IMG/VR virus record: IMGVR_UViG_2778261152_000005
Span: 1-57,958 of that record
Strand: one strand, 5' to 3'
DNA from: a virus
Taxonomy: Duplodnaviria > Heunggongvirae > Uroviricota > Caudoviricetes
Length of the DNA: 57,958 nucleotides
Shown here: piece by piece, positions 15,524-50,755 of the stretch
How the letters are laid out: the number at the start of each line of letters is the position of its first letter
Position numbering within the stretch: position 1 is the stretch's first letter
The notes under the pieces: generated by a model
What the model saw: the letters and a program-made list of their open reading frames with translations, nothing else
The model's database searches: none
Told to the model about the DNA's origin: nothing
Position numbers and translations under genes: made by a program

Positions 15524-15563
15524 TATTGATTTTCTTAATGGTGCCGATAATAGGAGTAAAACA
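15524..15563. repeat. Attachment-site direct repeat, copy 2 (boundary between elements A and B)
   Basis: TAATGGTGCCGATAATAGGAGTAAAACA shared with 2838-2872; 15539-15557 matches the tRNA-Thr 3' end. Confidence 0.7.
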
Positions 15564-15669
15564 CAGCAAATAACCACATGTATTTACTGTATTTTGTTTT
15601 TTACAAATTAGATAGATACCCGAATTGATACCCGTTTTGATTTCGCTCCCGATTGAGGAACAAAACGGG

Positions 15670-15909
15670 CTATTCAGTAGCCCTGTACCAAGCTTGCCAA
15701 CGGTACTTATCCAGCCGTAACTGGCGTAGGCATTCCGCTGTTTCGATGTCCGCCTGCAGGTCTTCGTCGCTATCCCGCCCGGCATCACTTGCCTTGCACG
15801 GTGGGTTCATCAAATCCTGGGATATTGTTGGCCGCATCGATTGCTCGCTGCCGCAACTGCACAGCGTGATCGTCAAAATCGCACTTAGTATGATTCGGGT
15901 CGTTAACAT
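15670..15909 (-). CDS. Putative o-spanin (Rz1-like), overlapping Rz in another frame
   Basis: ORF out of frame within and beyond the Rz gene; N-terminal signal-like segment with Cys (…ILTITLCSCGS…); lipobox atypical. Confidence 0.35.
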   Translation of the reverse strand: MLTTRIILSAILTITLCSCGSEQSMRPTISQDLMNPPCKASDAGRDSDEDLQADIETAECLRQLRLDKYRWQAWYRATE

Positions 15910-16144
15910 ATTTCACCACGTCGCGATAAATGGTCCGGTAAATCACTTTTCCTTCTGCGCTGGCCGCTGCCGCTTTCTGCTCACTAGTGGCGACGGCTTT
16001 CTCAGCCTTTTTGTTTTTCGCTGCATGCTCACTGTTTACCTTGTCGCTGTGCGCATACCAGCCTTTCAGATAACCCGCGTAAAAGGTAACAGCGACAAGC
16101 GCCAGGAGAGCGGCCAGCGCTAACAGCTTTGCTTTAATGGTCAC
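15785..16144 (-). CDS. i-spanin (Rz-like)
   Basis: GTG start at 16144 overlapping the endolysin TGA; N-terminal transmembrane helix (KAKLLALAALLALVAVTFYAGYL) then coiled-coil; track ORF extends to 16237. Confidence 0.6.
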   Translation of the reverse strand: MTIKAKLLALAALLALVAVTFYAGYLKGWYAHSDKVNSEHAAKNKKAEKAVATSEQKAAAASAEGKVIYRTIYRDVVKYVNDPNHTKCDFDDHAVQLRQRAIDAANNIPGFDEPTVQGK

Positions 16145-16680
16145 TGGTCTATCCCCCAGCACGTCAGTGCGCTTTCCTGATCCCGGCGCTCGACCTGACC
16201 ATAGCAACCATTCTTCTGGCCTTTGGTCAGTCTGCAATCGCGGCCGCCGTCTTTAATCCACCAGCGGATCGCTTCGCATGCACCTTTGCGGTCACCGGAA
16301 TTGATGCGCTTGTAGAACGTCGAGGGAAAACATTTACCGGGGCCGATGTTGTACGGGCAGAACGAAGCAATACCAGCTTTCTGCGGCTCAGTCAGCGGCA
16401 CCTTGATATTGCGGTCAACCCACGCCAGCGCCTTATCGCGTTCGATGGCGTTTACCTGGTCACATTTCGCTTGCGTCAGCTTCATGCCCTGCACTACCGG
16501 CTTACCATCGACCATCGTGGCGCCACGGCAAATTGTCCAGATACCGCCGCCGTCTTTATATGCCGTGAGATTGTTACCCTCTTTCTCATTCAGGAACTGG
16601 TCGAGAATAACCGATGCTGGCGCACCGGCAAGTACCAGTCCCAGAACGGCAGCGCTGAGCTTAGTCCTGTTGCTGGCCAT
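16141..16680 (-). CDS. SAR endolysin (T4-lysozyme-like)
   Basis: N-terminal signal-anchor-release segment and catalytic …[20 protein letters not shown]… motif; resembles phage 21 R. Confidence 0.8.
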
Positions 16681-16897
16681 AGAGCTGAGCCTCTTTACGA
16701 CGATCTTCTTTAATTTTGAAATACAAATTGGTCAGATAAGTAATCAGGCCAAGGACAATACTGGCCAGAACCCCGATAGCTGCCCACTGGCTAGGGCTGA
16801 CCTTATCGAGTAGCTGTAGTAACCAATAGCCGCCGCTACCAAGAGAAGTTACGTAGGAAGCGCCCGCCGCTATGTCTGAATGGTTGTTCATCCTCAT
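16661..16897 (-). CDS. Holin (phage 21 S pinholin-like)
   Basis: 78 aa, …[48 protein letters not shown]… closely resembles the S21 pinholin from memory; overlaps endolysin start. Confidence 0.75.
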
Positions 16898-17051: not shown

Positions 17052-18041
17052 ATGAACCGTATTGGCTGGATCTCATTAACTAGAGTAATAGCAGTAACAT
17101 TTATCGTAATGCTGCATTCTGCCTCATTCTATTTCAATAATTTTGATATTGGTGTTTTTGGCTGGGAAGTTGGGAATCTTGGTAATGCGGTTAGTAGATG
17201 GGGGGTTCCAGTTTTCATTATGCTATCAGGGGCTTTATTACTAAATAATAACAATTCGAATGACTACGCCTCTTTTTACAAACGCAGGCTCTCTAAGATA
17301 CTTATACCACTTATTTTCTGGTCTATCTTTTATTCTGCGATATGGCTTTTCCAGAATAAAGGTGACGCCACTATTTACGAAGCTTTAATAAATATTATAA
17401 GTGGACATCCGTTCTATCATATGTGGTTTATGTATATGATTCTTGGACTATACGCATTTACACCTTTGTTCAGGAAAATTGCATCTGTAATAGAAGATAA
17501 AGAAGCAACTTACTTAATCACCACTGTATTTATGCTTTCTGCCGTATGGATAAGTAATAAATACATAGCTGATGCTCATGATCCATTGTGGTTTTTCTGG
17601 TTCATTCAATACATTCCGTATTATTTTGCGGGGTATTATATTTCAAAATCATCTAGAAACATAAAGCCGACTCTTCTATTAATTGTAACGATTATAACCG
17701 TAGCAGCCACTTTTATAGCCACACATTACGCCTCGGTACAGTTTGGTAAGACTCAATACTTCTACGAACCGTTATCCCCTTTCATTATTATAATGTCATT
17801 GTGTGTATTTTGTTTATTCAAAAGGTGGAATTCAGGATTCTCCGACTCTCTCGCAAATTTAAGTTTAGGTGTTTATTTAATTCACCCTTTCTTTTTGCTG
17901 GCCTTCTTTAAGGTGTTTAAGGGGTTTGCAATGTCGTGGCCTCTTATGGGTTTTATTTGTGCGTGGATTATTTGCACAGTACTGTCTTTTGCTTCGACCT
18001 TCATTATCAAAAAAGTTAAATATTTAAATGTGATAGTGTAG
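17052..18041 (+). CDS. Acyltransferase family 3 membrane protein (O-antigen acetylase-like)
   Basis: 329 aa, multiple hydrophobic segments, N-terminal …RVIAVTFIVMLHS… typical of Oac/OafA-type acyltransferases; opposite strand to flanking phage genes. Confidence 0.75.
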   Translation: MNRIGWISLTRVIAVTFIVMLHSASFYFNNFDIGVFGWEVGNLGNAVSRWGVPVFIMLSGALLLNNNNSNDYASFYKRRLSKILIPLIFWSIFYSAIWLFQNKGDATIYEALINIISGHPFYHMWFMYMILGLYAFTPLFRKIASVIEDKEATYLITTVFMLSAVWISNKYIADAHDPLWFFWFIQYIPYYFAGYYISKSSRNIKPTLLLIVTIITVAATFIATHYASVQFGKTQYFYEPLSPFIIIMSLCVFCLFKRWNSGFSDSLANLSLGVYLIHPFFLLAFFKVFKGFAMSWPLMGFICAWIICTVLSFASTFIIKKVKYLNVIV

Positions 18042-18053
18042 TTTATTAATGAA

Positions 18054-18077
18054 GGGGGAGCAGATAACTCCCCCTTT
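18054..18077. terminator. Bidirectional hairpin terminator
   Basis: GGGGGAG-CAGATAA-CTCCCCC followed by TTT, between convergent acyltransferase and tail-fibre genes. Confidence 0.4.
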
Positions 18078-18093
18078 GGGTATTAGAAAGAGT

Positions 18094-20034
18094 TCAGACA
18101 AAATCAACTGCGGTATATCTAGATAAAAATCCACCCATACCCGAATATGAGATATTGGCGACCAAACTTACATCCGTAACGACAGTCGTAGAATTTATTG
18201 TCGTTGTGGATTTTTTTAATGTACCAGTCGCGGTTGTTACCTGCACAGCTACAGAACTAGCCCCCTGCTGGAAAACCTGCATATTGCCAATAAACCCACT
18301 ACCTTGCGCCATTCCAAATTTGCTGTATGCAGAACCACTCACTCCCATGTAGGGATAATGATATTTAGATAAATCGGCCTGCAATGAAACAGGATATGAG
18401 ATATTCACTGAATTTGCAGATGATAACATTGATAAATTACACCGCCAATGGATGTATTTACCTACTTGCCGGGCCTGAAGTGTATTTGTTACACTAGTGT
18501 TTAAATAGGTATTGTTTTTTGGAAAGTCTACCCATCCTGAATCGAACTGTTTAATTGGTGTCTTAATTGCAATCATCCCCCCGGCTAGAGCCCGAGGGCT
18601 ACCATCTGCACTTGGCTGAAGATATACGTCATCCCAAAGTAACTGAGCACTTCCCCCACCATCTAATGCGATGGCATGATGAAATCCTTCGTTTACACAT
18701 AACTCCTGTAGTTCAGAATATAAAATACCAAATGAAGATGATTGCCCTTGCACTTGAAGTATGCCGTAGTCTCCATTTGGGAAAACACCAAATACGGTTC
18801 TTGCGCTTATATCAGTTTGTGATGATACATCCTCATACGCCACACCGTTTTTAACAAGCAAATAATGCCAACCAAAACAACACCATGCACCTTCATTGAC
18901 ATAATCTTGTGCCGTCTTATTATCTGTATATGCCGCAATGGAAACTGAACCATCTTTCAATATCAATAAAGAGTAACGTCCATGTGTTTCTGTTTCGCCG
19001 CCGTCAAAATCCTGGTATGCAACCCCCCCTGATATCTGCAGCCCCCATGGTTTATACCCAACGCCATCTGTAATATTTGAATGCCAACCATCGCCATTAC
19101 AAATAGCAGGAGCTTTACTTTTTGAAGCATTCTCTGTTATTGTCATCGGCTGAACGTACATCACGCCAGATGAAAAATAAGGAGTATTACCATACTCCTT
19201 ATTAATATTTTGGGAGCCTTTCGGCACTGTAATAACGTGATAATAAACGCCACTGGAATGGATTTTCCTAATGCACTGTGATGACCCACTGCCATTCGTG
19301 ATATATCCACTTAAATTTTCAATCCCAAGGCTCAATTCATCAAGTTCATCCTGAACCGTTGTTCCATCAACAGTTCCAATTTTTGATGCCCCCGTTGGCT
19401 TTGCCAGTTCAATCATTACATCCGTTGCGGAACCTGACTGCGGTAAAACAGTTATCGGTTTACCCGCAGCGTTAAATGCCAGTAATTTGTTCGCACGTTG
19501 ATCAACTGGCGGGAGCACGTCAACATAGCTTTCTGGTACCCGAAGTGTGCGGTTTAAATTATTCTGCCCGGTTTGCTGAACATAGCGCTTTGTTGCCGCA
19601 TCCTGGTCGTTAACCGGATCGGCAAGCTCGGAAATCCGGTACCCTTCGGCATCAAACGGCCCACCAAACAAAGGTCGACGCAGTGCCAGTCCCAGATGGA
19701 TCCCATAACGTTGAATAGCCATCCATAGACGGTCGAAATCTTTATTTACCGTATCTGCAAGCAAGTCCCCGTTATCCTGATAATCAGTTAATCTGTAACT
19801 GGGGACAACACGTTCAATCATTACAACCGTGCCGGTAGCCGGAGCCGTGAGGAACGTAACATCACCGCCACCCACATTGCCTACGCCGGAGACAGAATAA
19901 CCGGACGTTAACTCCACACCGTTAAGTGTGACCTGAATGTCACTGGCACTGATAACATAAAACTCGAAAGGAAAAACGGTCGTCAGACCGTTGGCGTTGT
20001 AAATAATATAGGGCGTCTGGTTAGGTACCGACAT
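18094..20034 (-). CDS. Tail fibre / tailspike with T7 gp17-like N-terminal adaptor domain
   Basis: N-terminus (…GLTTVFPFEFYVISASDIQVTLNGVELTSGYSV…VVMIERVVPSYRLTDYQDNGDLL…) parallels the T7 gp17 N-terminal domain; remainder distinct. Confidence 0.7.
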   Translation of the reverse strand: MSVPNQTPYIIYNANGLTTVFPFEFYVISASDIQVTLNGVELTSGYSVSGVGNVGGGDVTFLTAPATGTVVMIERVVPSYRLTDYQDNGDLLADTVNKDFDRLWMAIQRYGIHLGLALRRPLFGGPFDAEGYRISELADPVNDQDAATKRYVQQTGQNNLNRTLRVPESYVDVLPPVDQRANKLLAFNAAGKPITVLPQSGSATDVMIELAKPTGASKIGTVDGTTVQDELDELSLGIENLSGYITNGSGSSQCIRKIHSSGVYYHVITVPKGSQNINKEYGNTPYFSSGVMYVQPMTITENASKSKAPAICNGDGWHSNITDGVGYKPWGLQISGGVAYQDFDGGETETHGRYSLLILKDGSVSIAAYTDNKTAQDYVNEGAWCCFGWHYLLVKNGVAYEDVSSQTDISARTVFGVFPNGDYGILQVQGQSSSFGILYSELQELCVNEGFHHAIALDGGGSAQLLWDDVYLQPSADGSPRALAGGMIAIKTPIKQFDSGWVDFPKNNTYLNTSVTNTLQARQVGKYIHWRCNLSMLSSANSVNISYPVSLQADLSKYHYPYMGVSGSAYSKFGMAQGSGFIGNMQVFQQGASSVAVQVTTATGTLKKSTTTINSTTVVTDVSLVANISYSGMGGFLSRYTAVDFV

Positions 20035-20054
20035 GGCTAGAACCTCTGGCAGGA

Positions 20055-21665
20055 TTAATAATCGACTTCGACCTCATGGTCTCCGTCACTTAACTGCCAA
20101 TGTTCCCGCGACTGTCCGGTCGGAATCCCGACCACTTTACCGATACGCACAGGCGTTGCACTAACCGCCCCCGCACCTGAATCAATGAAATCGTCTGGCT
20201 GTGTTGTCAGCGCCGGGTTGAAGTCACGCATTTGATCATACATTGGGCCATCCAGAACATCTGAGTGTGCCCACAAGAAACTAGACGAAAGCGGCGCTTC
20301 AAATGCGTCGAGGATGCGCTTCTGCTTATTCGTAACGCTGAATTCCTCCCTGACACCGCAGCCAGTTCCCTTAAGCGCCTGACGCAACAGCTTACCGGCG
20401 AATGACCCGGGGCCGTTTACTTCCACGCAGACAACGGGGATCTGATATTTAAGGACAAGCTCTTTAATCTGTATTACCTGACCGCCAGTTATTTTGTCAT
20501 TGGAGTCGAACTCCGCAAGGTCGCCCGTTAACGCCTGACAGATATGCCAGTAGAGGTGGCCTCGCGCATCCGTGAGTACCAGAGAAAACGCTGAAGCGTC
20601 GGCCTTCACCTTACCTGTTGCAACATCCCACCAGGCAACGGCACCGACAATCTGCACGTTACCAAGCCACATCGACGCGGTGCGGTTTGCATAGCGAATT
20701 TCCGGATGGATGTTGTACTCCCGGATGCGCTCAGGATCGAGACGAACGTCGCCAACGGGCTTGCTGTGCAGCTGATACTGGCTATCCCACTCGTTGACCG
20801 TACGACATTCTTTTCGACGCAGCTCTAACTCGTCATGATCAAATCGCTCAGGCCAGGCGCATCCGGCATAGAAATCAATAACCGTATCCGGTGCCGCAGC
20901 AAACTCCACGCCGTCGGCAGTCAGCTTATAGTCAACGTCTTCGACCAGCAGGCTGGCCGCTTTATGGATCCCTGCAAAAACGTACTCTGGCCGGAACGGA
21001 ATAACATAGCGCAGCTGCGTGGCGTCTTTCGCCTCGATGCGCTTTTCTTTCTCAAACAGCTTTATGGTCAGACAGTCAGCGCCTGCCGATTCCATTTCAT
21101 CGTAGAGGCTGTCATGTGTGTGCGGCGTACCAATAAAAAGTTTTCGCCCGCCGGGGATCAGGATGTGAGTCTGCTCGCTCAGGCGATAACGCAACTTTTC
21201 TCGCGCCTCCGGCGTCTGAATATTGCCCGGGACTTCCACGTCGTCATTCTGGCACTCGTTAGCGCGGGCGCCGGTGACGTTCGACAGGATACCTTTTGCG
21301 AACATGCTGGCGTTACGCATATCCAGCGAACCATTAACCCACCATTGTTCGACCGTGCCGATCCCGTCGGGCAACATGCCTTTTGTCAGGGGGTGGTTGC
21401 GTAAAACGTTCTGTGTATCGCGGCTGGTTTTGCGCGCTGTGGAGTCCGATTCTGACTGGTGCAGAATACGGTACTGGCGATCGCAGTAGTATCGCCAGGC
21501 ATTATAGACGCCCAAAATAGTGGATTTACCGAAACCACGGAAACAGCGAAGCACCGCGAGGTTTCCGCGATGCTCCAGCCAGTGGCAGGCTTGATAATGG
21601 CAGTCCGGAACGTCCCAGTTCATCCGCTCCGCCCACATTAAAAAGAAGGCGAGGAACGAAATCAT
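20055..21665 (-). CDS. Terminase large subunit
   Basis: 536 aa; Walker-A-like …RGFGKSTIL… near N-terminus; follows a small terS-like gene. Confidence 0.7.
   Translation of the reverse strand: MISFLAFFLMWAERMNWDVPDCHYQACHWLEHRGNLAVLRCFRGFGKSTILGVYNAWRYYCDRQYRILHQSESDSTARKTSRDTQNVLRNHPLTKGMLPDGIGTVEQWWVNGSLDMRNASMFAKGILSNVTGARANECQNDDVEVPGNIQTPEAREKLRYRLSEQTHILIPGGRKLFIGTPHTHDSLYDEMESAGADCLTIKLFEKEKRIEAKDATQLRYVIPFRPEYVFAGIHKAASLLVEDVDYKLTADGVEFAAAPDTVIDFYAGCAWPERFDHDELELRRKECRTVNEWDSQYQLHSKPVGDVRLDPERIREYNIHPEIRYANRTASMWLGNVQIVGAVAWWDVATGKVKADASAFSLVLTDARGHLYWHICQALTGDLAEFDSNDKITGGQVIQIKELVLKYQIPVVCVEVNGPGSFAGKLLRQALKGTGCGVREEFSVTNKQKRILDAFEAPLSSSFLWAHSDVLDGPMYDQMRDFNPALTTQPDDFIDSGAGAVSATPVRIGKVVGIPTGQSREHWQLSDGDHEVEVDY
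20118..20133. promoter_or_regulatory. Copy b of the GGTCGGAATCCCGACC motif, inside the 3' end of terL about 85 bp upstream of the tail-fibre gene
   Basis: Perfect 16-nt palindrome. Confidence 0.45.
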
Positions 21666-22000
21666 TTTTCGCCTTTCTGAAGGCGTTTGATAATGGCGGC
21701 CGCTTCACGTTCAGCCTCATTGACCCGCTGACCCAGTTCGAATTCTTCATCAACTTCACCGGGTTTCGGGGGAACTCCGCCGCGTGTATGCATACCAATA
21801 AGAGAATGCACCTTAATCAGCAGCGTCAGCGAAGCCGCAGCGTTCTTCTTGTCCCAGTAGCGGTCGCCGCGCTCCTGCTTTGTCAATGCATTGACGCGTT
21901 TATTACCGCCAGCCCAGTTGTCCGGGTCGGCTTCTTCGAGCACCACGTCAGTGAGTTTATCGCTCAGAGCAGTAAGGCGTGTTTTGTAATCCTGATGCAT
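21662..22000 (-). CDS. Putative terminase small subunit (T7 gp18-like position)
   Basis: 112-aa ORF overlapping terL start by 4 nt. Confidence 0.4.
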   Translation of the reverse strand: MHQDYKTRLTALSDKLTDVVLEEADPDNWAGGNKRVNALTKQERGDRYWDKKNAAASLTLLIKVHSLIGMHTRGGVPPKPGEVDEEFELGQRVNEAEREAAAIIKRLQKGEK

Positions 22001-22045
22001 AAAAAAGCCCCGTAGTGAATACAGGGCTATGATGGCGCGGGTTTG

Positions 22046-22061
22046 AGGTCGGAATCCCGAC
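22046..22061. promoter_or_regulatory. Copy c of the GGTCGGAATCCCGACC motif, upstream of the terS-like gene
   Basis: Perfect palindrome in the 64-bp intergenic gap. Confidence 0.45.
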
Positions 22062-22064
22062 CGA

Positions 22065-38721: not shown

Positions 38722-38724
38722 GGG

Positions 38725-39681: not shown

Positions 39682-39697
39682 CAACCCTACCTTCTCA

Positions 39698-39716
39698 GGA
39701 GAGCCAATGGCTCTCC
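39698..39716 (+). terminator. Hairpin after the cI-like gene
   Basis: GGAGAGCC-AATG-GCTCTCC perfect stem; weak T-tract. Confidence 0.3.
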
Positions 39717-39798
39717 CCTATCTTACTTGTAAAATCTTACCAACTAAATTCATTTAAATATCAATAAGGTGGTATTCCTTTACTGAAAAATACCACAT

Positions 39799-40110: not shown

Positions 40111-40230
40111 CCATCCCCTGAATCATCCATTGCTGTGTGTAGTCTTTGCCCGCCTCCCATGACGGGCTTTTTTATACCTGAAAGCGCATTCAGTGCAGTG
40201 CGTTCCCCGACATGAAAAGGAGCACCACCG

Positions 40231-40377
40231 ATGAAACCTGAACACCTCCACCGGCTGACGGGGCGCGACGTGCTCCTTTATCGCCGAAAACAATTCGACA
40301 TCTTCACCGGTCTGGCCCTCGCTACTGCGTTCGGCCTGGCTATTACCTTCATTCTCCTTGTAGCGAGGACTGCTTAA
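40231..40377 (+). CDS. Small membrane peptide (48 aa, not in ORF track)
   Basis: ATG with AAAGGAG upstream; hydrophobic C-terminal half; stop overlaps next gene start (TAATG). Confidence 0.3.
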   Translation: MKPEHLHRLTGRDVLLYRRKQFDIFTGLALATAFGLAITFILLVARTA

Positions 40378-41072: not shown

Positions 41073-41075
41073 TCC

Positions 41076-42011: not shown

Positions 42012-42013
42012 TT

Positions 42014-43315
42014 ATGCCAGACGTTCACGCACGACTTTCACCGTCTTCAGCGCATCGGTGGATGCGTTGCCCCGGTAGCCTGGCGCTGGAAGCCACTCAG
42101 CCAGACAAAGAAACGTCCTTCGCTTTAGAAGGTACCGCAGCGCATTCGCTTGCCGAAAAGGTGCTGCGCAACCGCCAGAATCACCCGGAACACTATGCGG
42201 GTTGCAATGTAGCGATGTTTCTCGGTTCTTATCCTCTTGCCGAGCTCCCGGATGATACTTCCAGCCCGCAGGTAGATGAGGAAATGGTCGAAGCCGTTGG
42301 CCGTTACGTCGACACCGTCTGGACGCTGTCGCAGGGTCATGAGCTCCTGGTCGAGCAGCGTGTCGACTTCTCCCACATCGTGGGGGTCGAAGAATCATTC
42401 GGCACCGCTGACGGCGTAATCATCGCAGGTAACGAGCTGCAGATCCACGACCTGAAATATGGTAAGGGTGTGCGGGTCGATGCCGAGCAGAACGAGCAGC
42501 TGCAGCTCTATGCTCTGGGCGCGCTTGAGCAGTTCAGCATGCTGTACGACTTTGAAACGGTGCGTCTGTTCATCCACCAGCCACGACTTAACCACGTTTC
42601 AGAGTGGGCGCTGACGGTGGAAGAACTCCAGGCGTTCGGCGAACGGGCGCAGGAAGCGGCGGCTAATGTGATCGTGATGTTCAACATTGCCGATTGCGAA
42701 GGCGTCGAAACCCTGCCGCTGGAAAACTTCACTCCTGGTGAAAAACAGTGCCGGTTCTGCAAAGCCAAAGCCGTCTGCACTGCACAGAAAATGCAGCACA
42801 TGCAAACAGCTGCCGGCGAATTCGAAGATCTGACAAAACCGGTTAGCGAAATCGTCACTGATGCCAGCTCACGCGTACCACTACTCACCATAGAGGAACT
42901 GGCGGAGATCTACAGCCAGGCCGACGCTATCGAATCATGGCTAAAGGCTGTGCGCGACCGGGTGAACAGTGAGCTGAACGCCGGGCATCCGGTACCGGGC
43001 TTTAAGCTGGTTACTGGCAAACAGGGCAATCGTGCCTGGAGCGATGAAGAAGCCGCCCGCGCGCTGCTGAAAGACCAGTTCCGTTATAAAACTGAGGAGG
43101 TTTTCGACCTTAAGCTGATTAGCCCAACCAAAGCCGAGAAGCTCATCAAAAAGGCCAGCCCTCGCCGCTGGACAAAGGTCGAAGCGCTGATCACTCGCGC
43201 TGACGGAAAGCCCTCCGTTGCACCTGAATCCGACCCGCGCCCTGCGCTAAATATCAACCCTGTTAACGATTTCGACGACTTGTCCGACGACGCGCTCGCC
43301 GCAGACCTCATCTGA
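42014..43315 (+). CDS. DUF2800-like PD-(D/E)xK (Cas4/RecB-like) nuclease
   Basis: N-terminal …[15 protein letters not shown]… signature and C-terminal Cys cluster (…[10 protein letters not shown]…). Confidence 0.6.
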
Positions 43316-43330
43316 TTAAGGAACGACTCC

Positions 43331-43879
43331 ATGAAAATTAAACTGAACAATGTCCGCCTGGCCTTCCCTGCTCTGTTTGAAGCAAAAACCGTGAACGGCG
43401 AAGGCGACCCGCGCTTCTCTGCTGTTTTCCTGATGGATCCGAAACATCCGCAACTGGATGAAGTCCGCAAAGCGCTTAAGCAGGTGGCGAAGGAAAAATG
43501 GGGTGAGAAGTGGGAAACCATTTACAACCAGCTGGAGAAAAAGCTCAACCTCTGCCTGCATGACGGTGACGAGAAAGCCGAATACGAAGGCTTCCCGGGT
43601 AACTTCTTCCTGAACGCTGCCAACAAAGCGCGCCCGGCGGTTATCGATCGCGACCGTTCTCCGCTAATCCAGGCTGATGGCCGTCCTTACGCCGGTTGCT
43701 ACGTCAACGCGGTGATCGACATCTGGGCGCAGGACAACAACTTCGGCAAACGTGTTAACGCATCGCTGGGTGGAGTCCAGTTCCTGCGCGACGGTGACGC
43801 CTTCGCTGGCGGCGGTGTTGCTGCCCCTGACGACTTCGACGACATCAGTGAAGGCGCTGACGCCGACGCACTTATTTAA
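43331..43879 (+). CDS. DUF2815-like phage ssDNA-binding protein
   Basis: MKIKLNNVRLAFPALFEAKTVNGEGDPRFSAVFL… pattern; paired with DUF2800 and PolA genes. Confidence 0.55.
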   Translation: MKIKLNNVRLAFPALFEAKTVNGEGDPRFSAVFLMDPKHPQLDEVRKALKQVAKEKWGEKWETIYNQLEKKLNLCLHDGDEKAEYEGFPGNFFLNAANKARPAVIDRDRSPLIQADGRPYAGCYVNAVIDIWAQDNNFGKRVNASLGGVQFLRDGDAFAGGGVAAPDDFDDISEGADADALI

Positions 43880-43912
43880 CCCAATCCATCTCTGACTCAC
43901 CTAGGACTGAAT

Positions 43913-44056
43913 ATGGACAATTACACGCTAACTGAAGACCAGGCAATCGCGCTACGAAACTTTATCGGGGAGTACTGGACCGATTTCCTTCAGAGCACCA
44001 GCTTAACAGAAGCGGAAGCCGAAACCCTTTACGAAGCCCTCGGCGGCGAAAACTAA
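43913..44056 (+). CDS. Hypothetical small protein (47 aa, not in ORF track)
   Basis: ATG with AGGA upstream, in the gap between the DUF2815 and polymerase genes. Confidence 0.25.
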
Positions 44057-44132
44057 TCCACACCCACCCGGCCATGCGCCGGGTGTTTTGCAAAGAGCCT
44101 CCCTTTTCGCAAAGCACCCGCGAGGAATATCT

Positions 44133-46199
44133 ATGCCTGAAACCATTCTCTGGGGCGACCTGGAAACCTATTGCGAGATACCCATCACGAACGGCACGCA
44201 CGCTTATGCGGAAGGTGTCGAAGTGATGTTGTTTGCCTGGGCCATCGGCGACGAGCCGGTTAGCGTCTGGGATCTGATTGCTGGCGAACCTATCCCCAGC
44301 AGGCTGCGGAAGGCCATTGCCGATCCCGACACTCTGCTTTATTTCCACAATTCACATTTTGACCGTACGGTGCTGCGCCATGCAATGCCGGAGCTGGCGC
44401 CGGACGTTACCCGCTGGCACGACACGATGGTGCAGGCGCTGGCGCACAGCCTCCCCGGCGCGCTGGGGGCACTCTGTGAGGTGCTGGGCGTACCGCAGGA
44501 CAAGGCGAAGGACAAAGAAGGTAAAGCACTGATTCAGCTGTTCTGTAAGCCACGTCCGAAGAACAGCAAGCTGCGCCGCGCAACCAGCAAAACGCACCCG
44601 GTAGAGTGGCAGAGGTTCGTTGCCTACGCCGGGCTGGATATCGAGGCGATGCGCGAAGTTTATAAGCGGCTACCGAAGTGGAACTATCAGGGCGCCGAGC
44701 TGGCGTTATGGCATCGTGACCAGCGGATCAACGACCGCGGCGTATGCATGGATGTGCAGCTCGCACAGGCCGCCATCGAAGCGGTAGACCTTGAACAGAA
44801 AAGGCTGGCAAAGCGCACGCAGGTGATGACCGACGGCGAAGTACAGGCGGCCACACAGCGCGATGCGATGATTAAGCACATTGTCGAATCGTACGGCGTC
44901 GAGCTGCCGGATATGCAGCGCAGCACGCTGGAACGTCGCATCGCCGACCCTGACCTGCCGTCACCGGTGAAAGAGCTGCTGGCTATCCGCCTGCAGGCCA
45001 GCACCACGAGCACCAGTAAGTACAAATCGCTGATGAAGGGTATCAGCAGCGACGGGCGTCTGCGCGGTACGCTGCAATTCTGCGGCGCATCGCGTACCGG
45101 GCGCTGGGCCGGGCGGTTATTCCAGCCCCAGAACCTGCCCCGCCCGACGCTTGAGCAGGAACGCATCGATGAAGGCATCGAGGCGCTTAAATCCGGCTGC
45201 GCCGATCTGCTTTTCGATAATGTCATGGAGCTGACCAGTTCGGCGCTGCGCGGTTGCATTATGGCGCCGGCGGGTAAAAAGCTGGTTGTATCTGACCTGT
45301 CGAACATCGAAGGCCGAAAGCTGGCCTGGCTTGCCGGTGAGCAGTGGAAACTTGACGCATTCCGGCAGTACGACGAGGGCACTGGCCCCGACCTTTATAA
45401 GCTGGCCTACGCCAAAGCATTCAACATCACCCCGGAAGAAGTGACCAAATATCAGCGCCAGATAGGCAAGGTGATGGAACTGGGCCTCGGGTTTGGTGGA
45501 GGTGTCGCGGCGTTCCTGACCTTCGCACTGGTTTACGGCCTCGATCTTGAGGAACTGGCAACCGCAGCGCTGCCGAATATCCCGCGCGATGTGCGGCGCG
45601 AGGCTCAGAGCTGGTATGACGAATCGGTTAAACGCAAAGCGACGTATGGGCTATCGGAGCGCGTATTCATCGCTTGCGATTCGCTTAAGCGCCTGTGGCG
45701 CCGGGCACACCCGAAAACCTGCGATTTCTGGTACCAACTCGAGCGCACTGTCCGTGCCGCTATTGTCACCCCTAAGAAAACACTCTATTGCGGCTATCTG
45801 AAAGTGCGCCGCGATGGCGCATGGCTGCGTATCCAGTTGCCGTCCGGGCGCGCACTCTGCTACCCGTCGCCGTCGATTGAGAAAGGAAATATCACCTACA
45901 TGGGGATTAACTCCTACTCGCGGAAATGGCAACGGCTCAAAACCTACGGCGGAAAGCTGGTCGAAAACGTAACACAGGCCGCCGCCCGCGACGTTCTGGC
46001 CGGGAACATGCCGCTGATCGAGGATGCCGGTTACAGCATTGTGCTGACGGTACACGATGAAGTGATCACCGAAGCGCCGGACACTGACGATTTCAACGAT
46101 AAAGCACTCTCCGCGCTGCTCTCCACTAACCCCGAATGGGCGCCCGATATCCCGCTGAACGCTGGCGGCTTCGAGGCGTATCACTACCGTAAGGATTAA
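44133..46199 (+). CDS. Family A DNA polymerase (3'-5' exonuclease plus polymerase)
   Basis: Start at ATG 44133 with GAGGA upstream; N-terminal exonuclease-like …[11 protein letters not shown]… and later …HDEVITEAP…; track ORF begins at 44088. Confidence 0.7.
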
Positions 46200-46204
46200 T
46201 CGCT

Positions 46205-46417
46205 ATGGCACAAGGTAACGTAGAAAATTTCGCAATCATTGTGTTAGTCAACGGCCGCACATCACAGGTCGAACTAACAACATCGCAAAAACGTTTGTTC
46301 GCAAAGTTAACACTCGGCGCGCTCAACGATAGTGGCCCTCTGAAACTTATGCCAATCGACGACATGGTCCAGTTACAACCCGACACCGAAGCATTTTCAG
46401 ACGGTGATCCGCTATGA
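46205..46417 (+). CDS. Hypothetical small protein
   Basis: Tightly packed; stop overlaps next start. Confidence 0.4.
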   Translation: MAQGNVENFAIIVLVNGRTSQVELTTSQKRLFAKLTLGALNDSGPLKLMPIDDMVQLQPDTEAFSDGDPL

Positions 46418-46626
46418 AATTCATTTTTATGGTGATGGATAGTCGTGCGCAGTTCGATATCGACAGCGCCGCCATTCTGGAATGCTGCGGCGATAAACAA
46501 CCCACCTGGCGCACTCTGCGCAGAGACTGGGGTGATCAGGGCGCAGTTCTGGTCCGCTTTCGTCTGGTACCAAACACTAACAGCGAAGTCGCTACCGACC
46601 CCGAAGTTGTCGGCACCATCAACTGA
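46414..46626 (+). CDS. Hypothetical small protein
   Basis: Overlapping start/stop with the upstream gene. Confidence 0.4.
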   Translation: MKFIFMVMDSRAQFDIDSAAILECCGDKQPTWRTLRRDWGDQGAVLVRFRLVPNTNSEVATDPEVVGTIN

Positions 46627-46637
46627 GGTAACCCCCT

Positions 46638-46856
46638 ATGGCATTTAAGTATCGGGACAGTCCGCTTTATTACCGGACTGCGCGGGAGGCTTTGCGCCTT
46701 GAGCAGTCCGGCGAGTATGACCGGGCGGCAAAAGTCTGGGCCAAAGCAAACCGCGAATCACGTAACGAACTGAATCAGGACTGGAGCGAACGCCGGTCTG
46801 ATTTTTGCCTGATGCAGAACATGCGCGAAAAGCGTAAGGCGGTGGACGATGCCTAA
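46638..46856 (+). CDS. Hypothetical small protein
   Basis: ORF overlapping the next gene start. Confidence 0.4.
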   Translation: MAFKYRDSPLYYRTAREALRLEQSGEYDRAAKVWAKANRESRNELNQDWSERRSDFCLMQNMREKRKAVDDA

Positions 46857-47043
46857 CATCGACAACAAGGGGTGGGGTTTTCCCGCTCTGTCGAAAAAAG
46901 CGCATTTCTTTAATTCGGGGGAAGCCATATCACTATGCGGTAAATGGATGTTCACCGGCATCAGGATTGATGAATGGCATGAACACCCTGAGAACTGCGC
47001 TACCTGCATGAAGAAACGCAAAAAACAGGAAGGCGAAAAATAA
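46849..47043 (+). CDS. Hypothetical small Cys-containing protein (possible zinc ribbon)
   Basis: …SLCGKW…ENCATCMKK…. Confidence 0.4.
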   Translation: MPNIDNKGWGFPALSKKAHFFNSGEAISLCGKWMFTGIRIDEWHEHPENCATCMKKRKKQEGEK

Positions 47044-47312
47044 TGGCTTACGAACGTGAAAGCCTCATCGAAAAGCACCTCGTCGCCGAAGTGAAAAAGT
47101 CTGGCGGGGTCGCCTTTAAGTTCGTTTCACCCGGTCGCCGCTCGGTACCGGATCGCATTGTCCTGCTACCCGGCGGCCGCCTCGTTTTCGTTGAATGCAA
47201 AGCACCCGGCAAAGCACCACGCGCCGACCAGCTGCGCGAGCACGAACGATTGCGCGCGCTGGGCTTTACCGTGGTGGTGTTGGATAGCAAAAATCTGGAG
47301 GGGATATTGTGA
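47043..47312 (+). CDS. VRR-NUC domain nuclease
   Basis: …SVPDRIVLLPGGRLVFVECKAPGKAPRADQLREHERLRALGFTVVVL… carries the PD-(D/E)xK D…E-C-K arrangement typical of VRR-NUC. Confidence 0.65.
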   Translation: MAYERESLIEKHLVAEVKKSGGVAFKFVSPGRRSVPDRIVLLPGGRLVFVECKAPGKAPRADQLREHERLRALGFTVVVLDSKNLEGIL

Positions 47313-47815
47313 ATCTTCCGGCCATTCTCGACATGTGCTGCGGTTCTCGTATGTTTTGGTTTAACAAAAGCGACCCGCGCGCCGTGTATTTGGATGCCCG
47401 TAGCGAGTCACACGTGCTTTGCGATAACAGGAAGTTGGAGATTCGCCCGGACGTACTCGGTGATTTCAGACAGTTGCCATTTGCCGACGGTCAATTTTTA
47501 CAGGTGATATACGATCCCCCTCATCTGCGCCGCGCCGGGCCTAACGGCTGGATGCGAAAAAAGTATGGCCAGTTGGATAAAGAGAACTGGCGTGAAGATC
47601 TTCGCGCAGGATTCGCAGAAGCATTTCGCGTGCTGGCACCCGGCGGCACGTTAATTTTCAAATGGAATGCTACGCAGATCCCTGTCCGCCAAATTATAGA
47701 ATTAACCGACCAGCAACCTACTATCTGGCAACGCACTGGCAAAGCAGATAAAACCCACTGGATAGTATTTTTAAAAGCCGTAGAGGGGTACCAGAACGGA
47801 TATGACCTCATCTAA
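47309..47815 (+). CDS. Putative small DNA methyltransferase (DPPH motif)
   Basis: …LDMCCGSRMFW… then …VIYDPPHLRR…; unusually short (168 aa), so assignment is tentative. Confidence 0.45.
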   Translation: MNLPAILDMCCGSRMFWFNKSDPRAVYLDARSESHVLCDNRKLEIRPDVLGDFRQLPFADGQFLQVIYDPPHLRRAGPNGWMRKKYGQLDKENWREDLRAGFAEAFRVLAPGGTLIFKWNATQIPVRQIIELTDQQPTIWQRTGKADKTHWIVFLKAVEGYQNGYDLI

Positions 47816-49202
47816 AATTTTCACCCCCCGCCCTTATCAAGACCTCATCATCAACCACGAAATCGACATCCTGCGCTGCAACATCTGGGCGGGCATGGGC
47901 ATGGGTAAAACCGTGGCGACGCTCACCACGCTGGAAGATCTCTTTATGGCGGGCGCAGAGACTCAGCCCGCGCTGGTTCTCGCGCCGCTGCGCGTGGCGG
48001 CCAGCACCTGGCCGGATGAAGCGGTTAAATGGGGGCATCTGCGCAATATCGAGGTACAGCCGATTGTTGGTAATGCCAAAGCGCGCGCGGCAGCGCTGGC
48101 GAACAGCAACGCCAGCGTGTTTACCATCAACTACGACAATCTGGTCTGGCTGGTGGAAGAACTGGGCGGCCGCTGGCCGTTCGGTACCGTTATCCCCGAC
48201 GAAAGCACCCGGCTGAAATCCTTCCGGCTGCGCGGTGGCGGTAAGCGCGCGGCGGCGCTGGGCAAAGTGGCACATAAACATATCCGACGCTGGATGAATC
48301 TCACTGGTACGCCAGCGCCAAACGGCCTGGTGGATTTGTGGGGGCAGGCGTGGTTTGTGGATCAGGGGCAGCGCCTCGGGCGAACTTACGGCGCGTTTAC
48401 CTCCCGCTGGTTCAACTCAATACAGTTTCCGGGGCAGAGCTGGACGAAGCTGGAACCGTTCACCCATTCGCAGGACGAAATACAGCGGGCACTGGCCGAC
48501 GTCACTATCTCCCTGGACGCCGCCGACTGGTTCGATATCAAAGAGCCTATCCATAACGTGATCCGCGTAGACATGCCGCCGAAGGCTCGCCAGCAGTATC
48601 GTGAAATGGAAAAGGAAATGTTCCTCGAGCTGAACGGCGAAGGCATCGAAGCGCCTAACGCCGCGGCAAAAACGGTGAAGTGTCTGCAAATCGCCAGCGG
48701 CGCGGTGTACACCGACGACGCCGGGAGCTGGTCAGAACTGCACGACGCGAAGCTGCAGGCGCTGGACAGTATTCTCACCGAAGCAGCTGGCGCGCCGGTA
48801 CTGGTGGCCTACCACTGGAAACACGACCTCGAGCGTTTGCTTAAAGCATTCCCTCGCGGTCGCCACCTCGACCAGGATCCACAGACGCTGCGCGACTGGA
48901 ACGCCGGAAAGATACCGGTTCTGTTCGCACACCCGGCCAGCGCAGGCCACGGCCTGAATATGCAGGACGGTGGCAACATATTGGTGTTTTTCTCGCACTG
49001 GTGGGACCTGGAACAGTACCAGCAAATTATCGAACGCATCGGTCCAACCCGGCAGATTCAGGCCGGACACAACCGCCCGGTGTTCATTCACCACATTATC
49101 GTCGCCGACACTATGGACGAAATGGTGATGGAACGCCGCAACTCAAAACGAACAGTGCAGGACATCCTGCTCGATGCCATGAAAAAGAGAGGTATAGCAT
49201 GA
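47802..49202 (+). CDS. SNF2-family superfamily-2 helicase
   Basis: …GMGMGKTVATL… Walker A and …VIPDESTRLK… DExx box. Confidence 0.7.
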   Translation: MTSSKIFTPRPYQDLIINHEIDILRCNIWAGMGMGKTVATLTTLEDLFMAGAETQPALVLAPLRVAASTWPDEAVKWGHLRNIEVQPIVGNAKARAAALANSNASVFTINYDNLVWLVEELGGRWPFGTVIPDESTRLKSFRLRGGGKRAAALGKVAHKHIRRWMNLTGTPAPNGLVDLWGQAWFVDQGQRLGRTYGAFTSRWFNSIQFPGQSWTKLEPFTHSQDEIQRALADVTISLDAADWFDIKEPIHNVIRVDMPPKARQQYREMEKEMFLELNGEGIEAPNAAAKTVKCLQIASGAVYTDDAGSWSELHDAKLQALDSILTEAAGAPVLVAYHWKHDLERLLKAFPRGRHLDQDPQTLRDWNAGKIPVLFAHPASAGHGLNMQDGGNILVFFSHWWDLEQYQQIIERIGPTRQIQAGHNRPVFIHHIIVADTMDEMVMERRNSKRTVQDILLDAMKKRGIA

Positions 49203-49387
49203 CACCGGTTATCTCTGACACTGACCTGATTAACATCAAAGAGGTTGAGCGCTCTGTTGGCCTGAAAAAATCCAGCATTTATGAGCGCATCAGTAATAAC
49301 GAGTTTCCGAAGCCTAAGAAGCTCGGGAGCCGAACCTCCCGCTGGGTACGCGGCGAGGTCGAAGAGTGGAAAAAACAGTTTCTTTAA
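49199..49387 (+). CDS. AlpA-family transcriptional regulator / excisionase
   Basis: 62 aa, …LINIKEVERSVGLKKSSIYERISNNEFPKPKKLGSRTSRWVRGEVEEW…; convergent with the integrase. Confidence 0.7.
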   Translation: MTPVISDTDLINIKEVERSVGLKKSSIYERISNNEFPKPKKLGSRTSRWVRGEVEEWKKQFL

Positions 49388-50646
49388 ATCAAACGAAGCT
49401 GGTCAATATAATCCGCATACCACTGCATCATTTCCCGACGCCCTTCCATATACAGGGCATGGTTATAAACCCCGCGTATATTGTTCTTGTCCACGTGGGC
49501 GATCTGGAGTTCAACCCAGTCAGAGTTGAATCCTTTATCGTTCAGGATAGTGCTGAACGTATGCCGGAAGCCATGCCCTACTACCCTCCCCTTATACCCC
49601 AGCGTGTGGATCATCCTGTTTATTGTGTTCTCGCTCATGACCTTTGACGGGTCATTCCTGCCGGGGAACATATTCACGTATCGACCTGTCAGCCCGTGCA
49701 GTTCTTTTAGCAAGACGACAAGCTGATCGGAAAGAGGTACCAGGTGCGGGCGGTCCATCTTCATAAATTCGGCGGGTATCTCCCACAGCCGATTATCGAA
49801 ATCTACCCATTCCCATTTTGAATGCCGCAGTTCGTAAGTACGCAGCCCCGCCAGCATCATGATCTGCAACCCCAGCCGGGGCAGCGGGCTCCCCTTGTAA
49901 CTCTCAAGCGCCGCGAGAAAATCAGGCAGTTCCTCCGCCGTCAGGAACGGGAAGGACTCTCCTTTATGCCCGGTCATTGCGCTATTCAGTTCGCTGACGG
50001 GGTTATACTTCGCGCGCCCAGTCGCAACTGCATAGCTGAATACTTCACCGCACCACCGGCGCGTTTTGGCTGCTTTCTCGGTTGCGCCGCGATTCTCAAT
50101 TTTGCGCAGTGCCCTCAGCATCTGGACAGGCTCGATTTCAGCAACTGGCAGCTTACCCACCGCTGGGAAAATATCTTTGTTGAATGCTTCGAGAATGTCA
50201 GAGGCATAGCCAGGCGACCAGCGCGGCTTCTTGAATTCATGCCATTCTATCGCGATCTCTTTTAACGTGATCGTCTTTACTGCCGCAGCTGCGGCATGGC
50301 TTTTGACTTTTACCGGGTCAACACCTGCCGCAACGTTACGCCGGGCCTCGTCGCGTTTTTCGCGAGCGGCCGCCAGCGAAACAGCCGGGTATACCCCGAG
50401 CGCCAGCATCTTTTCTTTACCGGCGAAAGTATAGCGATAGCGCCAGTATTTTGCCCCGCTGGTTTTCACCAGCAGGATAAGCCCGTTGCCGTCTGGCAGC
50501 TTATAGTCTTTCTCGGCAGGCTTTGCCGTCTCGACCTGTCGCGCGTTTAGTTTCATAGGTACCCGCCTCAAACTCAGATACCCGATTATGTACCCGTTTT
50601 TAATTTGGATTGCAACGGCAAAAGGTGGATTATGGCGGACAAACAA
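49384..50646 (-). CDS. P4-type tyrosine integrase
   Basis: 420 aa; N-terminal arm-binding pattern (…LPDGNGLILLVKTSGAKYWRYRYTFAGKEKMLALGVYP…) and C-terminal …GHGFRHTFST…; next to the tRNA-Thr 3' fragment. Confidence 0.85.
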   Translation of the reverse strand: MFVRHNPPFAVAIQIKNGYIIGYLSLRRVPMKLNARQVETAKPAEKDYKLPDGNGLILLVKTSGAKYWRYRYTFAGKEKMLALGVYPAVSLAAAREKRDEARRNVAAGVDPVKVKSHAAAAAVKTITLKEIAIEWHEFKKPRWSPGYASDILEAFNKDIFPAVGKLPVAEIEPVQMLRALRKIENRGATEKAAKTRRWCGEVFSYAVATGRAKYNPVSELNSAMTGHKGESFPFLTAEELPDFLAALESYKGSPLPRLGLQIMMLAGLRTYELRHSKWEWVDFDNRLWEIPAEFMKMDRPHLVPLSDQLVVLLKELHGLTGRYVNMFPGRNDPSKVMSENTINRMIHTLGYKGRVVGHGFRHTFSTILNDKGFNSDWVELQIAHVDKNNIRGVYNHALYMEGRREMMQWYADYIDQLRLI

Positions 50647-50709
50647 AACGCCTAATATGGCGAATTTAAAGGAAAAATGGAGGACTAAGGATGTTAGCGG
50701 ATTAAAAAA

Positions 50710-50755
50710 TGGTGCCGATAATAGGAGTCGAACCTACGACCTTCGCATTACGAAT
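50710..50755 (-). other. tRNA-Thr(CGU) 3' fragment (46 nt, anticodon loop to CCA), attachment core, not an intact tRNA
   Basis: Reverse complement ATTCGTAATGCGAAGGTCGTAGGTTCGACTCCTATTATCGGCACCA matches the 3' part of thrW from memory; the expected 5' D-arm half is absent. Confidence 0.75.

Follow-up and report, generated by a model that had tools for sequence, protein, structure and literature searches.

What kind of phage is represented by an integrated genome that joins the virion genes of a T7-like podovirus to a lambdoid immunity switch and to replication genes of another type? The question is raised by a 57,958-nucleotide (nt) stretch of DNA (IMG/VR record IMGVR_UViG_2778261152_000005, Caudoviricetes), referred to in its entirety as the window. 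A sequence-only reading had placed an apparently temperate podovirus at positions 15539-50755 and regarded lysogeny in a T7-like phage as uncommon. Database comparisons identify the element with high confidence as a temperate short-tailed phage of the BPP-1/YeP4 type that resides as a 35.2-kb prophage at the thrW hot spot of an E. coli chromosome. Its limits are 15537-50728, a few bases from the earlier left border; at the right, 50710-50755 is a tRNA fragment.

The BPP-1/YeP4-type temperate podoviruses are a group without a formal family, although BPP-1 itself belongs to the genus Rauchvirus. They are recognized by a divergent cI/cro pair with the primase gene on the cro side and the genes from nuclease to integrase on the cI side, by a virion module that includes Bbp19 and an SLT protein, and by a tyrosine integrase acting at a tRNA 3′ end, all of which are found here. 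The element adds a member to a kind of temperate podovirus that is already described and experimentally characterised, and its modular mosaicism is ordinary. A satellite or phage-inducible chromosomal island was considered and discarded, given the full virion module.

All the genes named in the sequence-only reading were recovered with Pfam and PHROGs. Profiles bear out the podovirus portal, adaptor, nozzle, ejectosome, fibre and terminase in T7/SP6 style. The cI(S24)/cro switch, the lysis cassette of the phage 21 type and the P4-type integrase with AlpA have their own Pfam or PHROG matches. The replacement of the T7 RNA polymerase (RNAP) and replication proteins by a Prim-Pol/VirE primase, DUF2800, DUF2815, PolA and SNF2 proteins likewise stands (Pfam matches, with phmmer and tblastn searches using T7 proteins null). 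The protein comparison that had been proposed with Autographiviridae and temperate relatives keeps the podovirus module and places the kinship with the BPP-1/YeP4 type, not with Autographiviridae. The claimed rarity does not survive, because the same combination is the genome plan of BPP-1 and of the induced phages YeP4-6, the early module has already been described, and the virion core is widespread in Proteobacteria. No new question about T7-like lysogeny is opened, as the defining RNAP is absent and the temperate lifestyle of the lineage has already been shown experimentally. The main value of the element lies in annotation: it documents a temperate podovirus of the BPP-1/YeP4 type in E. 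coli, where the virion module is rare. Its main additions are a primase lesion, a secondary attachment site in a tandem arrangement, and the lineage-wide presence of a GNAT and a small helix-turn-helix (HTH) protein in the virion module.

Virion module

The minus strand encodes, in order, cro, the primase, a 91-amino-acid (aa) HTH protein, two small proteins, portal, a Bbp19-like protein, scaffold, capsid, adaptor, nozzle, a GNAT acetyltransferase and a gp14-like protein. These are followed by a 906-aa SLT protein, a 968-aa member of the gp16 family, the putative small terminase (terS), the large terminase (terL), fibre, holin, lysozyme and Rz. The portal (33400-35025) belongs to the T7-type head-to-tail connector family (PF12236, 9e-120; phrog_332 and phrog_449) and is preceded by the two small conserved proteins of 76 and 161 aa (35029-35757; phrog_9015, phrog_17476). 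After it come the Bbp19-like small protein (33170-33403; PF25181, 3e-12) and the scaffold protein (32341-33183), the latter recognized by phrog_3742 (5e-86) and by its position between portal and capsid. The major capsid protein (31211-32122) matches PF19821 (2e-68) and phrog_3437 and, weakly, the T7 capsid family phrog_267 (2.3e-6); it has no match among PDB sequences. The adaptor, or tubular protein A (30590-31153; phrog_394, 1.7e-59), and the tail nozzle, or tubular protein B (28600-30591; PF25675, 2e-8; phrog_376, 5.5e-222), complete the tail. For portal, adaptor and nozzle the nearest solved structures are those of podovirus Carin-1 (8ck0, 9e-54; 8ck1_E, 2e-13; 8ck1_A, 5e-103), the T7 portal coming next after Carin-1 for the portal (1e-8).

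The ejection proteins follow on the same strand. A GNAT acetyltransferase (28149-28598; PF00583; K1E gene 27, 4e-18) occupies the position of T7 gp13. The gp14-like internal virion protein (27679-28146; phrog_418, 1e-41) also matches PF24072 T7_gp14 at 1.2e-3, which is below the Pfam cutoff. The protein in the gp15 position (24956-27676; phrog_1044) carries an SLT lytic transglycosylase domain (PF01464), and the gp16-like internal core/ejection protein (22065-24971; phrog_342, 1.4e-200; K1E gp36, 5.7e-12) is without an N-terminal transglycosylase domain. The terL protein (20055-21665) is of the T7 type, falling in phrog_38 (1.4e-86) as T7 gp19 does, matching T7 gp19 by phmmer (1.2e-20) and containing an RNaseH domain. 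A putative terS (21662-22000; phrog_9277), assigned by position, overlaps the terL start and is kept in Yersinia phage YeP4 and the E. coli prophage STEC383. The T7/SP6 gene order that had been proposed is broadly right but departs from T7 in detail: the fibre gene comes after terS and terL, and the transglycosylase domain lies in the gp15-position protein as in K1E and SP6.

Likeness to T7 varies from gene to gene. Besides terL, the portal (3.5e-11) gives a clearly significant phmmer match to T7 proteins, and gp15, gp16 and gp17 give marginal ones (4e-4 to 5e-3). Capsid, scaffold, adaptor and nozzle show no significant pairwise match to T7 or K1E proteins; for these four it is profiles, synteny and the Carin-1 structures that indicate likeness to the T7 type. 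The PHROGs common to T7 and the element are those of terL (phrog_38) and gp16 (phrog_342), and the portals cross-match reciprocally (phrog_332, phrog_449). Adaptor, nozzle, gp14, gp15 and scaffold belong to other PHROGs than their T7 counterparts. A T7-type portal, terminase, tubular proteins A and B, internal core proteins and gp17-type fibre can be assigned in this way, by direct matches for terL and portal and by profiles for the others. Judged from these comparisons, the virion module resembles that of T7/SP6 in architecture and by remote homology, and the element fails the defining property of Autographiviridae, an RNAP of its own.

Replication module and primase lesion

On the plus strand the order is cI, a leader, two unknown proteins, a DUF2800 protein, a single-stranded DNA-binding protein (SSB) of the DUF2815/Enc34 type, PolA, four small open reading frames (ORFs), a VRR-NUC nuclease, a methyltransferase, an SNF2 protein and AlpA. 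The DUF2800 protein (42014-43315; PF10926, 3e-110) is a PD-(D/E)XK nuclease with 45% aa identity to Bbp38 of BPP-1. The SSB (43331-43879; PF10991, 1.5e-44) is 66% identical to Bbp40, as is the family A DNA polymerase with its 3′-5′ exonuclease (44133-46199; PF00476, PF01612) to Bbp42 and the SNF2-family helicase (47802-49202; PF00176, PF00271) to Bbp47. Between polymerase and helicase lie four small ORFs of 70, 70, 72 and 64 aa (46205-47043), the 72-aa ORF being weakly PerC/ANR-like, a VRR-NUC-type nuclease (47043-47312; 97% aa identity to a STEC383 protein annotated VRR-NUC, 53% to Bbp43) and an orphan DNA methyltransferase (47309-47815; PADLOC MTase_II, 5e-65, and oMTase, 3e-50). The two early proteins at 40377-42011, of 231 and 311 aa, gained no functional assignment from the profile search. 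The 231-aa protein (40377-41072) consists in part of about eight tandem repeats of the type GSSGY(D/N)ARI, with weak collagen- or fibre-like profile matches. Neither STEC383 nor YeP4 encodes it; one related locus does.

The Prim-Pol/VapE primase gene (36554-38721, minus strand; PF09250, PF05272) is split into ORFs of 191 and 568 aa. Alignment of the DNA locates a 1-nt deletion at about 38369-38370, where a single T is missing from GCAGCTGCT, outside any homopolymer; tblastn with the intact STEC383 or YeP4 primase, each a single protein of 721-725 aa, places the frame change at residue 118. The N-terminal fragment holds the LALDCDSED motif (DxD) within 117 aa followed by a 74-aa out-of-frame tail, and the GTH motif and the VapE ATPase are found in the second ORF. 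The deletion therefore parts primase motif I from motifs II and III, and the remainder would need an internal Met start about 37 residues downstream.

Immunity switch

The cI-type repressor (39058-39681, plus strand) combines an HTH_3 domain with a peptidase S24 domain (PF00717, 8e-21) and has Ala84-Gly85 and a GDSM motif. It faces a Cro-like HTH_3 repressor (38725-38937, minus strand; PF01381, 1.6e-14) that is identical (100% aa) to that of STEC383. Two operator-like palindromes, ATACAA-N6-TTGTAT, start at 38950 and 38995 in the cI/cro intergenic region (38950-39012). An S24 repressor with an Ala-Gly site and a Ser, a Cro-type HTH protein opposite it and palindromes between the two make up a lambdoid, LexA-like switch. 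A third palindrome (39813-39830) overlaps a predicted sigma-70 promoter, TTTACA-17-TAGATT (39805-39833, plus strand), upstream of the replication operon, and this promoter/operator block is almost invariant in STEC383 and in E. coli F11. The three best matches to the motif in the window, at 38950, 38995 and 39813, all fall within the two regulatory regions. The layout suggests an analogy with lambda OR and OL in which all transcription would be carried out by host RNAP.

The region after cI (39682-40376) is a sparsely coding leader of about 700 bp that is conserved in STEC383 and F11. It holds the third palindrome over the predicted promoter, a 47-aa ORF, a strong hairpin and a 48-aa hydrophobic ORF. 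The hairpin, read from the sequence, is followed by a T-run (40149-40175, plus strand), giving a terminator-like element before the replication genes that is kept in three prophages. Rfam at gathering thresholds gave no match, so a known non-coding RNA does not explain this conserved gap.

Borders, attachment site and tandem islands

The element is bounded by a direct repeat of 21 bp without mismatches, AATGGTGCCGATAATAGGAGT, with copies at 15537-15557 and 50708-50728 that correspond to the 3′ end of the tRNA-Thr gene thrW. This is the sole repeat of at least 13 bp common to the two border zones. The left core is an attR-type junction, a copy of the thrW 3′ end adjoining an island of about 13 kb (island Y). 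In alignments with ES5, EC96 and EC2 the ES5 island flank runs into the core and then into phage DNA. At the right junction phage DNA is followed by the core and 25 further thrW bases, stopping in the anticodon loop exactly as in EC96; the core here forms part of a truncated thrW 3′ half of 46 nt (50710-50755, within the feature 50708-50755 on the minus strand). The sequence-only reading had seen a tRNA-Thr fragment beside the integrase gene, and it stands as this 46-nt 3′ half; ARAGORN detects no tRNA in the window, and an intact tRNA-Thr next to the integrase was dropped as a candidate on that account.

The fragment, the ARAGORN result and the junction alignment together show that the integration target was a displaced 46-nt piece of thrW at the far end of an older, degraded prophage and not thrW itself, the element thereby becoming the middle one of three tandem mobile elements: the island at 2300-15536, the podovirus prophage at 15537-50728 and a degraded prophage ridden with insertion sequences (IS) from 50756. 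From 50708 the right flank is 100% identical over 5.3 kb to EC96, where the 46-nt thrW fragment lies at the far end of the degraded IS-ridden prophage, whose integrase adjoins intact thrW. Many E. coli genomes match bases 1-15536 at about 97%. The counterpart of this stretch in ES5 consists of paoD, a LysR fragment, the island of about 13 kb, intact tRNA-Thr (thrW) and proA; paoC and paoD form the left end of the window. Here, within a tandem island array, a displaced tRNA fragment has served a prophage as a secondary attachment site.

The P4-type tyrosine integrase (49384-50556, minus strand) has the domains Arm-DNA-bind_3 (DUF4102; PF13356, 4e-27), Phage_int_M (PF22022, 4e-30) and Phage_integrase (PF00589, 4.5e-22), with a tRNA target and an adjacent gene for an AlpA-type excisionase/regulator (49199-49387, plus strand; PF05930, 7e-14). 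By comparison with EC2, its natural target is thrW, because a relative with 94% nt identity there adjoins intact thrW. The EC2 integrase is part of an IS1-truncated remnant of the same prophage type that keeps terS, terL, fibre, acyltransferase and lysis genes, and the arm next to the integrase gene of the element resembles the arm adjoining intact thrW in EC2. Repeats of RTACCCG cluster by both cores, two of them 12 bp apart at 15616-15637 and a group of three at 50559-50599, with all five pointing the same way (plus strand). From motif and position, an integrase with an arm-binding domain could plausibly use them as arm-type sites.

The flanks hold further features. The island encodes its own tyrosine recombinase (2922-4286), a Dit-like protein, a resolvase and a protein annotated flotillin in the ES5 record. 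To the right, at 50976-51917, a C-terminal transposase ORF fragment is cut off by a complete IS1 (about 51150-51917). The fragment matches an EC96 region annotated "integrase core domain-containing protein, incomplete", and the IS1 accounts for thousands of E. coli megablast matches. An 1182-aa ORF in low-GC DNA (52231-55779) has no Pfam or PADLOC match and is hypothetical in the identical EC96 region. Downstream of it lie a hexapeptide-repeat acetyltransferase gene (56339-56884) and genes annotated tail fibre and tail fibre assembly in matching E. coli records. A defence-island reading of the flanks was dropped, PADLOC being null for the flanking island proteins and the 1182-aa ORF.

Fibre, acyltransferase and lysis genes

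The tail fibre (18094-20034, minus strand) has an N-terminal domain of the T7 gp17 type (aa 8-159; PF03906, 2.7e-13) and a C-terminal part with a NAGPA-like phosphodiester glycosidase domain (aa 321-484; PF09992, 1e-15), which points to a receptor-binding domain with enzymatic activity. Conservation with STEC383 and YeP4 extends over no more than the N-terminal 210-230 aa or so. Between the fibre and holin genes, on the opposite strand, lies an Acyltransferase_3 moron (17052-18041, plus strand; PF01757, 5.5e-44) with a GC content of 0.38. STEC383 and EC2 have acyltransferase genes in the corresponding place, phage TL-2011b has an O-acetyltransferase near its fibre, and the gene of the element is likely to serve O-antigen acetylation in the lysogen, that is, lysogenic conversion. 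The lysis genes, on the minus strand, form a cassette of the phage 21 type with an S21-family holin, a lysozyme with a signal-arrest-release (SAR)-like N terminus and a spanin. The (pin)holin (16661-16897; PF04971, 4e-32) has an MRM dual start, the endolysin (16141-16680; PF00959, 1e-24) is a phage lysozyme with a hydrophobic N terminus rich in Ala and Gly, and the Rz-like spanin (15785-16237; phrog_2536, 1e-45) probably has its true start near 16140.

Proposed life cycle

In the life cycle that these genes suggest, the P4-type integrase recombined the 21-bp core, identical to the thrW 3′ end, at the displaced fragment, and AlpA together with the integrase would reverse the integration. The LexA-like S24 repressor is predicted, from the anatomy of the switch, to bind the ATACAA-N6-TTGTAT operators at two places. 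Those between cI and cro would shut the leftward operon comprising cro, primase, late genes and lysis genes, and the operator over the promoter downstream of cI would shut the rightward replication operon. Self-cleavage of cI at Ala-Gly in an SOS response would lead to induction. Transcription would depend on host RNAP, because no phage RNAP is encoded, and replication on the Prim-Pol/VapE primase, DUF2800 nuclease, DUF2815 SSB, PolA, VRR-NUC protein and SNF2 helicase. The virions are expected to be particles of T7 architecture, with a tail of portal, adaptor and nozzle, a three-protein ejectosome including a transglycosylase, six gp17-type fibres and packaging by a T7-type terminase. Release would be effected by pinholin, SAR endolysin and spanin. 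During lysogeny the low-GC acyltransferase probably modifies the O-antigen of the host cell.

Alternative readings

The T7-type terL and portal, the gp16-family ejection protein and the gp17 N-terminal domain might be taken to mark a temperate member of Autographiviridae proper with its own RNAP. Such phages exist: Pasto, HTVC019P and LUZ100 are T7-like, bear an integrase and have a MarR-type regulator beside int and RNAP (PMC10134795). The probability of this is nevertheless negligible, and membership was rejected for want of an RNAP gene. With T7 gp1 RNAP as query the best phmmer E value on the prophage proteins is 0.12 and the best tblastn value on the whole window 0.47. T7 gp2.5, gp4, gp5, gp6 and the gp1.3 ligase likewise find nothing significant among the proteins or in the whole window, and the element has no unassigned ORF longer than 311 aa. 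Nor does it have the T7-type replication set and one-strand layout, as its genes diverge from the cI/cro switch onto both strands. At the other extreme, the IS-rich tandem island array, the frameshifted primase and the IS1-truncated remnant of the same prophage type at thrW in EC2 could suggest a cryptic remnant too decayed to encode a phage any longer. This is highly improbable and was likewise rejected, since there is only a single lesion. The element measures 35.2 kb against 35.0 kb for the infectious YeP4 and contains no IS, and its virion, lysis, immunity and integration genes are all intact; the many disrupted genes that the sequence-only reading had named as a sign of decay reduce to one, the primase. 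The anatomy thus agrees with the description "apparently temperate", subject to the caveat of the frameshifted primase gene.

A less extreme possibility is a fully functional, inducible temperate phage in which the frameshift is an assembly error or the primase fragments cooperate. All other genes are full-length against STEC383 and YeP4, there is one lesion in 35 kb, the attachment cores are identical, and int, AlpA, cI and cro are intact. Weighing on the other side, the missing T of GCAGCTGCT is not in a homopolymer, the DxD motif is stranded in the short fragment, the remainder needs an internal Met, and the relatives encode a single protein. A functional copy is a serious but less favoured alternative. 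We read the copy as most likely a very recently inactivated prophage, otherwise intact and able to excise; that it is defective in replication, because the primase is split, is favoured by a narrow margin and holds unless the assembly is in error.

Several points count against the reading of the element as a BPP-1/YeP4-type prophage with a lambdoid switch and a primase defect. The frameshift is known from a single assembly and might reflect an error in sequencing. Podovirus morphology and SOS inducibility have been seen in the relatives YeP4-6 and BPP-1 and are carried over by analogy to an element known from its sequence. The operator, promoter, arm-site and terS assignments are inferred from motif and position only. 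Across the window the operator motif is marginally above chance (5 occurrences against 2.2), and the argument for operators is one of placement and conservation, the window-wide motif statistics being weak. A scan of 31-41 kb for sigma-70 promoters and terminators showed no enrichment over shuffled sequences (5 sigma-70 promoters found, 5.2 expected), and the one promoter taken from it, tentatively, is that lying over the third operator. A simple lipobox regular-expression search revealed no embedded or adjacent Rz1 lipoprotein ORF for the spanin. Finally, the capsid and scaffold, and also terL, find no match in BPP-1, so the virion module is mosaic within the group; by sequence comparison these three are of a type unlike that of BPP-1 and like that of YeP4.

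Distribution and modular exchange

A portal-based scan of one genome per species identified 72 prophage loci in Gamma- and Betaproteobacteria (Enterobacterales, Pseudomonas, Stenotrophomonas, Burkholderiales and Acinetobacter), and synteny was counted in the 49 of them whose flanks are complete. The order HTH protein, portal, Bbp19, scaffold, capsid, adaptor, nozzle, GNAT, gp14-like protein is kept in 41-48 of the 49. The VapE/DUF2800/PolA early module accompanies the virion core in only about five. Among 5426 complete E. coli genomes the virion module is found in three (at least 80% nt identity). The early module is a known shuffling cassette: it is common to BPP-1, BcepC6B, Xfas53, YeP4 and APSE (PMC8579659), and F11 and many other E. 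coli carry it at 82% nt identity. The cassette at 36357-49202 of the window corresponds to 18001-31971 of the F11 stretch and comprises cro, VapE, cI, DUF2800, DUF2815, PolA, VRR-NUC and SNF2. Its partners in F11 are a virion module of the myovirus type, a Q antiterminator and a lambda-type holin. This is a clean case of modular exchange, with one early cassette attached to a podovirus module here and to a myovirus-type module in F11, and with different integrases in close relatives, for thrW here and for dusA in STEC383. Phage vB_EcoM_APEC has a related virion module together with lambda O and DnaB-type replication genes.

Two genes of the virion module accompany it throughout the lineage, which bears an integrase, is without an RNAP and spans some 70 species of bacteria. 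The GNAT gene lies between nozzle and gp14-like genes in 43 of the 49 loci, and 245 phage records contain homologues, among them K1E gene 27, which is upstream of the portal gene; the GNAT of BPP-1, bbp24, has a position other than the nozzle/gp14 slot. The 91-aa HTH protein (35969-36244, minus strand; phrog_16553, 3e-45), a candidate late-gene regulator whose PHROG is labelled "transcriptional repressor", is encoded upstream of the portal in 41 of the 49 loci at a median distance of 890 bp, whatever the early module. It is conceivable, though unlikely, that the GNAT is a virion-associated or ejected enzyme for assembly or early infection and that the HTH protein is a dedicated late-gene activator replacing a phage RNAP. 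If both held, the lineage would provide a tractable model for the temperate ancestry of T7-like phages.

Comparison with known systems

T7, K1E and SP6 have their own RNAP, host-takeover genes and a single-strand layout, in contrast to the cI/cro switch, integrase and predicted host-RNAP transcription of the element. K1E comes closer through the matches of its gene 27 and gp36 described above and through a lysozyme/transglycosylase domain in the middle ejection protein, as in the element.

In megablast searches against phages only Yersinia YeP4-6 and TL-2011b were matched. TL-2011b is an integrase-bearing temperate coliphage podovirus with a similar tail layout of portal, adaptor, nozzle and internal virion proteins. 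Its ejection genes gp37 and gp38 share 73% nt identity with the element (window 23643-26929, TL-2011b 24854-28137), which indicates, from sequence comparison, that ejectosome genes have been exchanged between podovirus lineages. The remainder is unrelated at the DNA level: TL-2011b has RecT/exonuclease VIII, a replication-initiator early region and another terminase upstream of the portal.

BPP-1 (Rauchvirus BPP1; relatives BMP-1 and BIP-1) follows the same plan from attP to int. Its order is attP at a tRNA 3′ end, lysis, fibre, SLT ejection proteins, nozzle, adaptor, capsid, Bbp19 and portal, then primase and cro facing cI, nuclease, SSB, PolA, VRR-NUC, helicase, xis and int. Identity to the element is about 66% aa for PolA, SSB and SNF2, 53% for VRR-NUC, 45% for DUF2800, 30% for the nozzle and 28% each for portal and adaptor. 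BPP-1 differs in having a tropism-switching diversity-generating retroelement cassette, an epsilon15-like capsid with a cement protein and another terminase type upstream of the portal, and in using tRNA-His rather than thrW; no reverse transcriptase or Avd appears among the Pfam and PHROG assignments of the element's ORFs. BPP-1 lysogens yield a mitomycin-inducible podovirus (PMC3863775).

Mitomycin C treatment of lysogens released phages YeP4, YeP5 and YeP6 (MK733262-4; unclassified Caudoviricetes), whose plaques are turbid and whose particles have podovirus morphology in the electron microscope (PMC6548840). YeP4 (35,029 bp) shows nearly gene-for-gene synteny with the element. Fibre, lysis, int, SNF2, PolA, DUF2815, DUF2800 and cI lie to one side, and primase, portal, Bbp19, scaffold, capsid, adaptor, nozzle, GNAT, gp14-like protein, terS and terL to the primase side. 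Most genes are 42-84% identical at the aa level (portal 80%, capsid 84%, nozzle 78%, terL 75%, primase 75%, PolA 72%, SNF2 75%; replication genes 59-78%). The two differ in immunity, as cI is only 28% identical and cro has no match, and in integrase (42%), host genus and fibre C terminus. Of the large ejection proteins, the SLT protein matches over 71 N-terminal residues at 35% and the gp16-like protein is unmatched. The Rz spanin, the P21-type holin and the acyltransferase moron of the element are likewise unmatched in YeP4.

The closest relatives are the E. coli prophages STEC383 and B379, with about 90% nt identity over most of the element. They are located at dusA, with another integrase at the opposite end, and are without AlpA, the methyltransferase and the 231-aa repeat protein; the fibre C terminus and the acyltransferase also differ, and STEC383 has a frameshift in its SLT ejection protein. 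The virion and replication genes of STEC383 are the same as those of the element. With a cI that is 95% identical at the aa level and the identical Cro described above, STEC383 and B379 probably belong to the same immunity group as the thrW prophage.

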